NCBI RefSeq assembly: GCF_021028975.2
Contig: NC_059428.1
Span: 27,962,001-28,026,000 of the forward strand
Reading direction: 5' to 3'
Origin: Sphaerodactylus townsendi
Taxonomy: Eukaryota
DNA: 64,000 nt
This document shows positions 1 to 39,796 of the stretch, piece by piece. The stretch's first letter is position 1. Each line of letters opens with the position of its first letter. The position numbers and the translations under genes were made by a program. The notes under the pieces were generated by a model that worked only from the letters and a program-made list of their open reading frames with translations, made no database searches and was not told the origin of the DNA.

Positions 1-724
1 CTGAATTAGATTTATCTTAAATAGGCACTAGGTTAAAATTACAGGTCAGGAATTTTCAGGGATCAGTAGCTAGGCTCAGCAGAATTTACATTCAAACAAT
101 TCCCATTGCACTTATCCTCCAACCCTCAGTTTATTATGAACAAAAAGTACATTAGCTGTCAGCCTCAGCATTCTAAAGTTTCCCATCAGTTTTTTCCTCC
201 AATAAATAAGTAATAAGAACTCACTTAAATTATCTGCATTGCTAGTTCTAGCAAGAATGCTTTCAGACTTAAGAATTCAATAATCTGATTGATTTTTACT
301 TGTTTAACAGCGACAACTTCAGGCGACATCTCCCATTAAAATAAAAACTGCATCATCGAGCATGAAAAAGGTTACAAAATCACATTGTACAAAAAGACTT
401 ACCTGAACTTAATGTATATTAAATAAATCATTCTTTGCAGTATTGTAAAGCATCAGCTCATTCTGCAGCTAAGATTATTGTCCTGGATTTAGGAGACAAG
501 CTAAAAGTCATATTTTAAGTCATTTTAACTAACTGAATTACAGCGGAGTAAAGTTAAAGTAGAATGTGACAATCTAAGAAATCACATGCGAGTTCTGGTA
601 GAAATAAGGAACTATAACAGGTATGCAAGATGAGGGCAGTACATAATCTTCATTATACCTTTTGTTCTTGGCTCATTTAATCCCCATATTTCTTTTGACA
701 CTGGAGCCTTTGAATGATAAACTC

Positions 725-2197
725 AGGGTGGATTTTTTTAAAAAAATTGAAATAGGGTTTTAAAATTTTTAAATCTGATTTTAAAAATTAAATGTTTCTG
801 AGGGAAAATCTATAGTTTAGAAGTTTTCTGTTCAAGAATTTTTTTGGTAAATGAATTGCATTAATCCATTTACAATGTCATGCTTTTCCAAAGGTTTCTG
901 TAAATTTTGGGCCATTTTTCCATCTAGCAGATATTATCACAGATGCTTGGTTTTATACTTCTCAAAACTTTGAATTTGTGTCTGTCTCTCCTTCACAGGA
1001 AAAGTTATAAAATAAATGTACAGAGTTGAGAAAAAGACTTTAATCCCATTGTTCCTATGCAAATATATGTACACAGATGCAATCCCTTACTTCTCAAATG
1101 CTAAGTTTCAATGAATACGAGATTGTTTGGAGTAGAATAGACCTGCACAAGGAGATGGGCAAGCTGTAAAAATGAAAGTAAAACTTTTTGAGCAGAATAC
1201 CTCACAAGTCTTGGAATCTTTGCCTGTGTAGATCTAGGTTTAATATTAATAGCTCCCTGGAGGTAAAAATCTACAGCTGCAGATCATAAGAGAGACCCAG
1301 TTTGGGAATATTTTAATGAAGTTCCTCTAATGGGTATTCAGCTATGTGTGCAAAATGCAAACACTGCAACTATGAAACGCAAGGCCTAGTGGCCTAAATG
1401 AAACTCAGGATAATTATAAAATTGAAAAATTATTATTATGAAAAAAATTAATGAAATTATTCTAAAAATGAAACTTTCATCTAGTTGTAAATATTAAGAT
1501 TATACCAGCAAGAATGAGTCACCTACAATCACTACTTCTGACCTGAAAATCTACATGACTGAGGTACCACTATAGGACACTGTTTTACCAGAATTGAGCC
1601 TGACTGAAAATACTGGCACACCTTAAAAGAGCAATAGTTTCAAAGTGAAGACCTGGGTTATAATGGTGCTAAACTTTTCAATATTTACCTCAGTCATTTT
1701 AAGACACTTTTTGACAACAGTGTAGCATTTTGTCTGATTGTAATATTTTTTAACATTATTTTTGACCACTGAAGAAGGCCTTTGAGCCAAAACACATCTG
1801 GGTCTAAAAGTGTTGCATAAGACTTGATGTGTTATCATTTTGTGATTTTCACTGATGTATGTTTGGAAGCCTATTTAGGGCCATTCACTATATTTTTATT
1901 ATAATTTAAATAAACACACTTGTATTTTTGCTACATAGCACTTTCCATTTTAAAAGATCCAATTTCATCTTAACCTTTTGGTTCTTTCCTCTATTGCTAC
2001 GAGGTGAACCATCTATCTTTCTATTTCTAATAGTATAACCAAATCTTTAATTTTTGATATTAATGTAAAATTAATTCAAAAAATGAAACCATGTGGTTGT
2101 GAATATTAAAATTATACCAGAAAGAATGAGTCTTTATGTAGAAAAATATGATTTAAATCAAGTCTTAGTGGCTATGATTTAAATCAAATCTACACTG
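725..2197 (+). mobile_element. hAT (Tip100/Zaphod-like) non-autonomous DNA transposon relic, interrupted
   Basis: Ends CAGGGTGGATTT... and ...GATTTAAATCAAATCTACACTG. Decayed BED-finger start (RDPVWEYFNEVP...AKCKHC) near 1290-1400. Homologous inverted copy at 44929-45556. Confidence 0.6.
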
Positions 2198-3267
2198 GAT
2201 AAACTTTTCAAATATTTAATGCTATTATGTACTCTGACCAATAGGATTAAGGTAAATTATACATTTAATCAAAATTGAGAGCATAATTTACTATTAAATC
2301 TCAACAAAACCAAAGGGTTTGCCCATGCAAGACTCAAGAAATTCAGTGAGATCTTAGTATTTAATTAGCACGTTTTGATGTTGTTCCACAGCAAAATGTT
2401 CTAAGCTATTCTCAATAAAATGCAAAATTAAAAGAGAATGCCACCATAACGAATGAAAAGAAGAATTTTTTAAACTGGTATACAGTATTTAAACTGGTAT
2501 ACAGTTTAAAACCTCAAGCTTATTCTCAGAAATTAAGCTTTTCACAACTAATATTCCAGCTATCACCTCTGTTTTACGTGCATAGAACTTCATCTTACAT
2601 TCAGCTCATTACCAAGTCTTCCAAGATGTTGGATGGGCAGTACTCTAGAAGAATCCAGTATGAACAAACGTTCCAGATTATGCTGTTTATGGAATGCTGA
2701 ACATTTTTTCTTTAAAAAATCAAATACATTTTTAGAACAAACCTCTATATTCACAGGATGCTCACTGGTTATATATTCAAGAAAATGTCAATCATATAAA
2801 ACAAATCCTATGCAATTATTCTTGATTCAGTAACATTATTTTATATGGCACAAACAAAATGATGGAAAGAGGTAACACACTTCTACAGCAGCTTCTACCA
2901 ACTTTTAAGTTATATATAGTTTTAATGAATAATTTAATTAACCATTTAATTAAGAATTAGCCATTTAATTAACAGTTAAAACAGAATAAGATACCAAATC
3001 AACTAAATTTGTTTTAATACACTTCAGAAATAAATGTAAGTTTAAAACATTCTTTTAAGAGCTGCTAATGTCAAACTAGAATTTACAATGTTTCAAAGAT
3101 CTCTGCACAGGGTCACATCCCCTCAACATGGCAGAACAGAGATCACAAGGAAGATATTAAAAAGGAGAAAGCGCACATTTGAGCCGTAGCACCAAAGCAT
3201 GTTTTTTAGACATCTGACCCTAAATCTGCAAAGCAATTTAATATTCTAAACTTTTAGAGATCATACT

Positions 3268-37049: not shown

Positions 37050-37310
37050 CAGGAAGAGGAGATGGATTTATATCCTGCCTTTCTCTCCGGTAAGGATTCT
37101 CAAACTGGCTTACAAACTCCTTCCCTTTCTCTCTCCACAACAGACACCATGTTAAGTAGATGTAGTTCTGAGAAAACTGTGACTAGCCCAAGGTCCCCCA
37201 GCAGGCTTCATGTGCAGGAGCAGGGAAACAAATCCACCACTCATGTGAAGGAATGGGGAATCAAACCCAGCTCTCCAGAGTTCACCACTCTTAAGTGCTA
37301 CATCATGCTA
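37050..37310 (-). mobile_element. SINE with L2/MIR-like tail
   Basis: GATTTATATCCTGCCTTTCTC...GGCTTACA...GTGACTAGCCCAAGGTC...GGAATCAAACCCAG pattern of a reversed CORE/L2-tailed SINE. Confidence 0.55.
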
Positions 37311-39687
37311 TAAAACGCAGAAACACTTGATTTTTGGTGGATTGAAAAGCGTGAACTGCAAGATCACTGGAAGTACAACTACTTCCTTTCAACTACCTTC
37401 CTAAAACATGAGTCCACATTTACACAAACTTAAAAGGACTCAAGGAGAGTCAAAATAATGAAGTTATAGGGTCTCCTCAGCTACTCATATAGCCATTACA
37501 CCAATACAACAGAGTTAACGCACACCTTACTGGAAATGAAAGGATAGGGATAAAACTGAATAGGCCAAACGTCAACAAAAAATTTTTGGATCTAAGAGTC
37601 AGTTCAAAAATTTAAGAGCTAGGCTTCCTTTTCAGTATTCAGGGCATCATCTTTTAATTACCATGCTTTCAAAATTATTGGTACTACGAAGTCCAATATA
37701 ATGCAATGTCCTCATAATGGCCAGATAAAGATTGCACCCTCACTTCTCTCCGCTATCAGCGTGGACCAATCAAGACTCAACCAGTTTGAATGGAATGTTG
37801 AAGTGGAGGGGAAAAAATTCCCGAGGGAAGTCTAAATGCCAAACATCAAGAGAAAAACAGGAAGTTAGGTTTCGGAGAGAGGAGAGAGAGGAGGTATCCT
37901 GGAGTAGGCAGGGAATCCACTGGGGTCTGTAATGTATTATTTTAGACCAGCACAGTTTGGATGCTGTTCTTCAATTAAAAACTTTAAAAGCTGTCCAGTT
38001 ATTGACTTTAGATTTTATACCAGAAAGAACCAGCACTGTAACCATTCAGTACACTACACCTCCCAACGCCAACAACTGTATCAGCTGTCACACTGGAGTG
38101 GGAGAGCATTACAGATCACACAAACTAAATAAACTTGAGCGTTTTGTTATATATAGTACCCAAAGAAAAGTCATCTGGATTTGTAGCCAATGTGTTCTCT
38201 GGTACAGGATTAAGGAATACTCTCTCTGTGGGTGTGAAATAACACACACTAATAAAAGAAATCCATTTTACCTCACAAGCCTGAAGTTAACTGTGGAACT
38301 GGTGTATAACAGAAGAATGTTACTGATGGTGAGGTGGGTCACAACTCTCCAGCCTGAAGGACTTGTTATTGGCAAAGTGGTATAAAAAATAACAAGAAAA
38401 ATGCCTGAATCAGAGGTGGGGATAATCTATATGATAAAAAACACTACCACCACAACAAAGAACTAACTGCTCGTTCTAAACTTACTTCTGTTGCCTGCAT
38501 TCAGGTGATCTTATTTTGCCATTAAACTAGGTTGCTCCAATTTCAGCAGCTACCTTTGAGGTCTCCTGAGGAGCCAGGATCATCAGACTTTTCTGCTCCA
38601 ACAAATTTCCTGGCAGGTCTGGCATGCTTGCTGTAACCTGTGCTGTTTTTTCATCCCTCTGCTTGCTCTGGGATGTGGCCTACAGTGTCTTCCTTCTGGA
38701 ATGGCTGTCACTGCATCGCTCCCACACCATCTGGTGATTACATTCAGAGTATGTGGCTGCACTGCAATTCCTCCCACTACCAAGGTCTACTACAATAAAA
38801 TCAGTCTTCCGACATCAGTTTCAGATTTATAGATGGAGATGACACTTTTGAGAATTCAAAATGCCTTTTTTTACTTTCTGCACTATTTCTATTCTTCTGT
38901 ATTTATCCTGTGCCTCTAATGACCTAGAGGCAGTTTGCTTAATGCTTTGGATGCACAAAGGATGTATCCTGCTATCTTTGTGGTTAAACATAAATATGCA
39001 CCTATTTACTTTCAGCCATGTATTTTGGAGATTTAACCAAAGCTTAACAATTCTGCAGGAGAAAAAATTTGTTTCTCTACTTTTACTCTTCTTACATAGA
39101 AGAGGAAAGCACAAATGTGGAAAGAACAGTCCTATTCATTCCAACTTTTATGAACTGATCTCTTATAATCATGTCTTATCTATATTCAGAGTCTTCCAAA
39201 TCAGACAAGAGTTTAAAATACAGAACTTTGTCTGCACAATTTTAACACATTTTTAAAGGGAGAGGAATCGTTCAAGCAGGTGTTGTAACCTTCCCCCCGC
39301 AATGTTGTGATGTGGTAAAATCTCAGGAGGGCTATGCTACATGCTTTATATTTTAAAATGCAACCCTCTACAGGCCTTCCAAATGAAAGAATTATAGTAC
39401 TTCGGCTGACAGTAATATTAATCATCCAAGACTTAAATAGCAGAAATTAAATATAAACATGAAAATAAAAAATGTTATTGTCATTAGTTTACAAGGCATT
39501 CAAGAGTTATCTCCATTATGGAAAATTATTTCATTAGGATGAGTTCATCACAGATTCCAGAGATAACTTAAAGAAATTAATTTTCAAAAGAGATGTACAG
39601 CCAGAAAAACATACCACTTCAGTAGATGCTTACGAGTATAGGGAAAGAACCAAGTGTCTATTTTTAGTTACAAAATAAATCACTTAC

Positions 39688-39796
39688 ATTGTCAATGAAA
39701 TTTGGCTTAAATCCTCCCTCTTGCTGTCTCCTGAGTTCTTCCTGTTCTCTTTGACGCAGCATCTCTTCTTCACGTCGTCTATGCTCTTCTTCATGT
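39688..39796 (-). CDS. PSPC1: PSPC1 coding exon 6 (end of coiled coil)
   Basis: [42 protein letters not shown]; donor AAT|GTAAGT; 109 nt; ends in phase 0. Confidence 0.96.

Follow-up and report, generated by a model that had tools for sequence, protein, structure and literature searches.

Which acceptors can the donor of PSPC1 coding exon 6 use, and do they make up a splicing switch? We examined this question in a 64,000-nucleotide stretch of the Sphaerodactylus townsendi genome (assembly GCF_021028975.2, contig NC_059428.1, positions 27,962,001 to 28,026,000), hereafter the window, whose gene is PSPC1, on the minus strand and with nine coding exons. A preliminary description of the window had proposed that this donor is a hub at which five stop-bearing segments decide between full-length PSPC1, targets of nonsense-mediated decay (NMD), and a protein reduced to the DBHS core, which lacks the low-complexity tail and the nuclear localization signal (NLS). 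Our analysis indicates that the five segments are probably chance pseudoexons, and that the conserved alternative partner of the exon-6 donor is probably a distal exon elsewhere, not among the five. The features on which the question turns are given below in window positions, with splice scores from a home-made frequency matrix, not from MaxEntScan.

39688..39796, minus strand: PSPC1 coding exon 6, donor AAT/GTAAGT, phase 0, after codon 392
19940..39687, minus strand: intron 6, 19,748 bp, the longest intron, with several SINE-like (short interspersed element) repeats inside
19882..19939, minus strand: PSPC1 coding exon 7, canonical acceptor partner of the exon-6 donor
10050..10235, minus strand: coding part of PSPC1 exon 9, ending in PNKRRRY
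34582..34646, minus strand: pseudoexon of 65 nt, acceptor 11.0, donor 10.6, stop at codon 3
27719..27892, minus strand: pseudoexon of 174 nt, acceptor 9.9, donor 11.2, stop at codon 13
21086..21202, minus strand: acceptor (9.5) and 38-codon frame without GT donor, ending at its own TGA, with AATAAA at 21078
8419..8522, minus strand: segment of 104 nt at 1.5 kb beyond the PSPC1 reading frame, acceptor 6.8, donor 11.2, own stop at codon 8
403..500, minus strand: segment at 9.5 kb beyond the PSPC1 reading frame, with donor 12.8 and acceptor -0.2

Exon 6 ends in phase 0 after the DBHS core, the intron that follows it is the longest (the second longest has 6,344 bp), and the C-terminal PNKRRRY is encoded in exon 9, all as previously described. 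The end of exon 6 lies past RRM1, RRM2, and NOPS (domains read on homologs) and a charged coiled-coil stretch. Each of the five segments has an AG directly before its start and gives a frame-0 stop if joined to exon 6, as had also been claimed. Of the strong splice signals ascribed to all of them, both sites were found in 34582-34646 and 27719-27892; 21086-21202 has a strong acceptor and no donor, and 403-500 has a weak acceptor, near which lies a stronger one at 594. On the same matrix, the constitutive acceptors of exons 2-8 score 3.3-9.6, and the candidate donors of four segments 10.6-12.8. Intron 6 contains only three of the five. The other two, 8419-8522 and 403-500, lie beyond both the stop codon (10050) and the three AATAAA hexamers that follow it (9786, 9672, and 9481); hence, their use would require read-through and skipping of exons 7-9. 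Having no donor, 21086-21202 could serve only as a cryptic last exon. The stop lies more than 50 nt before the downstream junction in 34582-34646, 27719-27892, 8419-8522, and 403-500, and no such geometry exists for the donorless 21086-21202. Three segments were searched genome-wide (34582-34646, 27719-27892, and 8419-8522) and are single-copy in their own genome at the sensitivity used, in line with their earlier description as non-repeat.

We then counted pseudoexons in intron 6, defined as donors with an acceptor 50-200 nt upstream, and used 30 shuffles as the null. At the middle cut-off, there are 10 on the sense strand and 14 on the antisense strand, compared with 7.5±3.1 in shuffles; at the loose cut-off, the numbers are 24, 23, and 20.1±4.5, respectively. 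At these two cut-offs, the splice-signal density of intron 6 is therefore not above the background given by antisense strand and shuffles. All 10 sense pseudoexons at the middle cut-off contain a stop. Two of these 10 had been listed in the preliminary description, which omitted eight equally scoring ones. Stop-bearing pseudoexons left out there, with scores equal to those of the listed segments, include the following.

24082-23948, minus strand: stop-bearing pseudoexon
21971-21873, minus strand: stop-bearing pseudoexon
20861-20759, minus strand: stop-bearing pseudoexon

A stop is also present in 906-1230 of 1283 (71-96%) AG-started segments of the five lengths. As the counts are near those of shuffles and stops occur in 71-96% of such segments, the five stand out neither by the strength of their sites nor by their stops. 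The stop-bearing geometry of four segments is expected by chance.

The RNA data comprise three raw runs (X5-X7) of one study, matched by species label, of which 6-24% each was used; positions 20000-39849 were covered. Exon 6 has a depth of about 41x, 26x, and 10x (9.5) in the three runs. The bin holding 27719-27892 (27282-27943) has zero depth in all three, the bin holding 21086-21202 (20662-21323) has about one read-length of cover in one of three, and the bin holding 34582-34646 (34564-35225) has 93, 106, and 119 bases. The check named in the preliminary description was junction reads from donor 39688. This donor appears in none of the joints (15 of 77) and loose ends (18 of 1025) listed, nearly all of which are repeat-derived, and the intronic candidates have 0-2 reads each in RNA obtained without NMD block. 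The five-segment switch is thus largely refuted at steady state for the three intronic segments, which leaves room for rare poison inclusion. Chance frequency together with almost no reads on these three makes it likely that the five are ordinary pseudoexons. Separately, in run X5, 11 molecules end at 39714, inside exon 6 and 26 nt before the donor, where there is no GT; this pile-up is absent from the other two runs.

The exon-6 donor itself was inspected in other vertebrates. We retrieved 360 PSPC1-related proteins, 275 of which have a recognisable exon-6 end. At this end, 129 of the 275 diverge from the conserved full-length sequence; 16 of them carry a conserved distal tail, and the other 113 truncations have 89 different five-residue starts, with skipped exons, read-through into introns, and gene predictions among them. 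A related distal tail occurs in 31 of the 275 proteins, joined from exon 6 in 16 and from exon 8 in 15 (one false regular-expression hit, P0226, left out), and eight of the 31 stem from assembled sequencing runs. The squamate distal tails are EMVMMLKCS, ERVKMLQCS, EAVKILKCG, and GTVKMLMLKCC; those of other groups are VKIKMLKCR (turtle), VTIKILKCR (birds), GDKRKCG (mammals), and IAHFLKHG (coelacanth). Judged from these annotated tails, the exon-6 donor is a hub in vertebrates, with minor targets that turn over fast and a single conserved one that lies beyond exon 8. Another recurrent truncation from the same donor is seen in P0126, P0131, P0140, P0142, P0304, and P0348 (bird, bovid), whose tail MRLAQHLL... 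results from exon 6 joined to exon 8 out of frame and matches the window at 13537.

The human PSPC1 short isoform (exon 6 followed by GDKRKCG, P0152) resembles the proposed event in using the same donor and losing the low-complexity tail and NLS. It is presumably the one named PSP1-beta; no ortholog of its exon could be placed in the window. According to a preprint (bioRxiv 10.64898/2026.06.30.735642), cycloheximide raises the level of a human PSPC1 NMD isoform; this event, whose coordinates are given in Table S5 of that source, is alike in its NMD sensitivity and may use the exon-6 donor. Hence, the earlier idea that the exon-6 donor is diverted to NLS-less or NMD isoforms holds for other vertebrates, and truncated and NMD isoforms of PSPC1 and SFPQ are a type of switch already annotated or published.

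We next compared the five segments with known tails. In back-translated profiles of 41 annotated tails, an indirect conservation test that stands in for genome alignment across vertebrates, none of the segments exceeds the antisense maximum. In an acceptor-anchored scan with the squamate distal tails, four segments rank 258, 759, 294, and 202 of 798 acceptors; the acceptor at 500 is below the score cut-off and hence unranked, and its neighbour at 594 ranks 659. The acceptor at 8522, belonging to 8419-8522, ranks 202 for squamate distal tails, 32 for all tails, and 67 for SFPQ tails, each of 798. Judged by these ranks, neither 8522 nor 594 opens a distal exon of the type of altSFPQ, an alternative SFPQ isoform, that is, one past the canonical 3' end with a short frame of the V-K/R-M/I-L type and a stop. 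As a positive control, the same scan run with SFPQ tails of other species places this genome's altSFPQ exon first among 367 acceptors (score 23.0; next 9.8). A by-eye likeness between frame 1 of 8419-8522 (HDKREIC-stop) and the mammalian tail was rejected, being out of frame with the acceptor and without support in the ranking. Taken with the chance-level counts and the near absence of RNA on the intronic three, the lack of any match to the 41 tails or to the distal exon speaks against the five segments being the switch.

For the conserved distal tail itself, peptide and ungapped searches of the window and a 50-kb flank returned nothing clear. The best candidate is a 94-nt segment 14.1 kb beyond the window (G000:C4:27947879-27947786, minus strand), which is single-copy and purine-rich, starts AG/GAA, ends CAG/GTACCT, and reads ETVTVLLKMHS. 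It ranks 1 of 798 for squamate tails, and none of 3579 decoy acceptors scores above it. Under stricter nulls, 28 of 150 shuffles reach its score, the family-wise p is 0.21-0.41, and it falls to rank 70 for bird and turtle tails after removal of two post-hoc passerine tails. Two collinear tblastn matches to a Pogona exon-6 tail (E 0.01 for each) lie some 10.2 kb outside the window.

G000:C4:27951663-27951800, minus strand: Pogona-tail stretch, single copy, with a CAG-TAG tandem acceptor (8.2) and an immediate stop

This match is a weak lead: 13 of 200 residue shuffles score equally, and its second half also resembles what we take to be a CR1-like fragment. A Paroedura tail match 13.5 kb beyond the window was rejected, as four of 150 shuffles make it not significant after 41 tails.

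The distal route that we consider probable would proceed as follows. Polymerase would read through the proximal poly(A) sites, and the exon-6 or exon-8 donor would then pair with a distal acceptor, adding 6-11 codons and a stop. Such joining would drop the low-complexity tail and the NLS, and further downstream junctions would send most of the distal-joined RNA to NMD. The long intron 6 would in addition yield low-level, lineage-specific cryptic exons that are normally suppressed by DBHS proteins. We extend these routes to this lizard from other vertebrates.

A vertebrate distal switch at the exon-6 donor may be related to the known switch of SFPQ. Neeves et al. 2025 (PMC12372870) describe altSFPQ as an autoregulated NMD target without the NLS and with seven residues of its own. 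The two features relevant to the comparison are given here.

G000:C6:97214711-97214754, plus strand: altSFPQ-like exon of this genome, with ACTAAC upstream, a strong acceptor, the reading VKVMPAG-stop, and a GTAAGA donor
13359..13537 of the window, minus strand: PSPC1 coding exon 8, whose donor is by position paralogous to that of SFPQ exon 9, from which altSFPQ is spliced

The altSFPQ-like exon is 5.6 kb past the SFPQ stop codon. SFPQ exons 9 and 10 are the counterparts of PSPC1 exons 8 and 9 (ERF...PNK), and by this correspondence altSFPQ maps to the PSPC1 exon-8 donor, not to exon 6. The PSPC1 switch would resemble altSFPQ, as described in the available part of that paper, in skipping the NLS-coding last exon for a distal one of about seven codons and a stop; moreover, sauropsid PSPC1 distal tails stand in the same register as the VKVMPAG-stop exon. 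The two differ in that altSFPQ uses the penultimate-exon donor while PSPC1 uses those of exon 6 and exon 8, in that none of the five segments matches the distal exon, and in that regulation, known for altSFPQ, is only putative here.

The tails themselves allow a closer comparison. Among 119 SFPQ proteins, the altSFPQ tails are VRMIDVG, VKIISAG, VKVIPAG, VKMMQAE, and VKMLQAE. When anchored at the stop, sauropsid PSPC1 VKILKCG, VKMLQCS, and VRMLKCS align with altSFPQ VKIISAG, VKMLQAE, and VRMIDVG, respectively. Scored against altSFPQ tails, ten of the 17 distinct PSPC1 distal tails surpass 99% of 7,873 heptamers that precede a stop in the genome, and three exceed all 7,873; the tails from mammals (three) and anoles (two) do not rise above background. 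Squamate PSPC1 profiles place the altSFPQ exon third of 367 acceptors, and DNA alignment of this exon with the PSPC1 and NONO flanks is at background level. The likeness was spotted by eye before the test and the tails share descent; with the DNA alignment at background, paralogy is therefore only a lead. On these sequences, we hold it as a tentative and somewhat doubtful possibility that a single distal-exon switch older than the duplication was inherited by both PSPC1 and SFPQ, and that PSPC1 extended it to its exon-6 donor. DBHS dimers would then promote the distal, NMD-bound choice, and the lizard exon would be the 94-nt segment. If dimers promote that choice, NONO loss would raise PSPC1 and SFPQ mRNA without mutant-mRNA decay. 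As far as the available text of PMC13648420 goes, NONO loss raises PSPC1 and SFPQ without such decay, and PSPC1 loss leaves the others unraised. PSPC1 is named at seven places in the available text of PMC12372870, a PSPC1 counterpart of altSFPQ at none of them, and we found no paper that proposes a shared PSPC1-SFPQ distal exon, as judged on titles and abstract openings.

Several points weigh against taking the five segments as chance pseudoexons and the distal exon as the conserved partner. Three candidates outscore the constitutive sites, and the strict cut-off gives a slight excess (four pseudoexons on the sense strand, two on the antisense strand, and 1.5±1.1 in shuffles). The bin of 34582-34646 holds 1-2 reads in each run, which caps its depth at about 3%, 6%, and 19% of that of exon 6. 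The RNA comes from unspecified tissues, with the species label as its sole link, and from partial runs without NMD block, a setting in which true poison exons would be depleted. Only the 15 joints and 18 loose ends were viewed, mostly repeat reads, which the loose settings let crowd in. Gene predictions make up many of the database tails. Finally, the conserved distal exon has no significant site here; it may have been lost or replaced by 8419-8522.

It is possible, if unlikely, that this lineage has one or two real NMD exons among the five that escape notice at steady state; the most plausible are 34582-34646, as a poison cassette, and 8419-8522, which would then be the first distal exon. The former is the best remaining poison-exon candidate, with sites stronger than constitutive ones, a stop that precedes its donor by 56 nt, and the reads just mentioned. 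The latter follows closely on the poly(A) signals, ends at a GTAAGA donor, and carries a seven-codon frame of altSFPQ length; moreover, annotated species often have exon-6 tails specific to their lineage. The absence of 39688 from the listed joints, the middling ranks of 8522 against squamate and SFPQ tails, and the chance level of the pseudoexon counts argue the other way. We consider it improbable that there is no regulated switch at all, with the database truncations being long-intron splicing noise and the distal-tail likeness being convergence. The diversity of starts among the 113 truncations, the mammalian and anole tails unlike those of SFPQ, and the failure to find a significant distal exon in this genome would fit such noise, but one and the same type of distal tail is shared by lineages as far apart as coelacanth and mammals and follows either of two donors, and the human NMD isoform is stabilised by cycloheximide. 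That all five form a regulated multi-exon switch between full-length, NMD-bound, and core-only PSPC1, as first proposed, is very improbable: the AG acceptors and in-frame stops in five of five, together with the mutual buffering of DBHS paralogs (PMC13648420, available text) and the autoregulation of altSFPQ (PMC12372870, available text), are outweighed by the zero reads on 27719-27892 in three of three runs, the missing donor of 21086-21202, the weak acceptor of 403-500, the eight equally scoring intron-6 pseudoexons outside the five, and the lack of a conservation signal in the tail comparisons.

Two other systems bear on the intronic segments. SR and hnRNP genes carry conserved poison exons, and 34582-34646 and 27719-27892 share their stop-bearing cassette geometry; they differ in that the segments here have neither a conservation signal nor junction reads in the data examined. 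SFPQ suppresses cryptic acceptors in long introns, according to the available part of PMC7819710. Intron 6 is similar in being long with many latent acceptors, and 21086-21202 has the anatomy of a cryptic last exon; the difference is that inclusion is unseen for the window segments. The available part of PMC10984136 holds nothing on DBHS isoforms.

The rest of the gene model bears out the identity as PSPC1. Its first five exons are as follows.

48452-48066, minus strand: PSPC1 exon 1
44086-43785, minus strand: PSPC1 exon 2
43146-43051, minus strand: PSPC1 exon 3
42635-42439, minus strand: PSPC1 exon 4
41777-41693, minus strand: PSPC1 exon 5

Exon 1 matches only PSPC1 among the named rows, with lizards first; close homologs have two RRM_1 domains and NOPS, and the exon-6 end FKPNFIDN is common to the window gene and a gecko protein. 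SFPQ and NONO lie on contigs other than that of PSPC1. A convergent chromodomain gene, which we take to be MPHOSPH8 from its motifs, lies on the plus strand about 19-37 kb beyond the window start, with its stop about 18.9 kb beyond it. Repeats were also observed. Intron 5 has broken frames like a tyrosine-recombinase element at 40379-41339 (minus strand), presumably DIRS-like, and intron 7 has broken reverse-transcriptase frames at 14385-16061, presumably L2-like. A 164-bp palindromic repeat at 15898-16061 draws many RNA reads and has related copies at 23546, 25370, and 28774. Upstream of PSPC1, broken non-LTR (long terminal repeat) retrotransposon frames occupy 58846-60686 (plus strand).

Any AT-rich intron of 20 kb can be expected to hold strong-looking, stop-bearing pseudoexons, and the five segments alone mean little. 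If the PSPC1 distal exon is indeed paralogous to the altSFPQ exon, it would offer a concrete mechanism for the one-way buffering among DBHS proteins described in the available text of PMC13648420. Such paralogy would also predict an NLS-less PSPC1 counterpart of altSFPQ, the isoform linked to amyotrophic lateral sclerosis.

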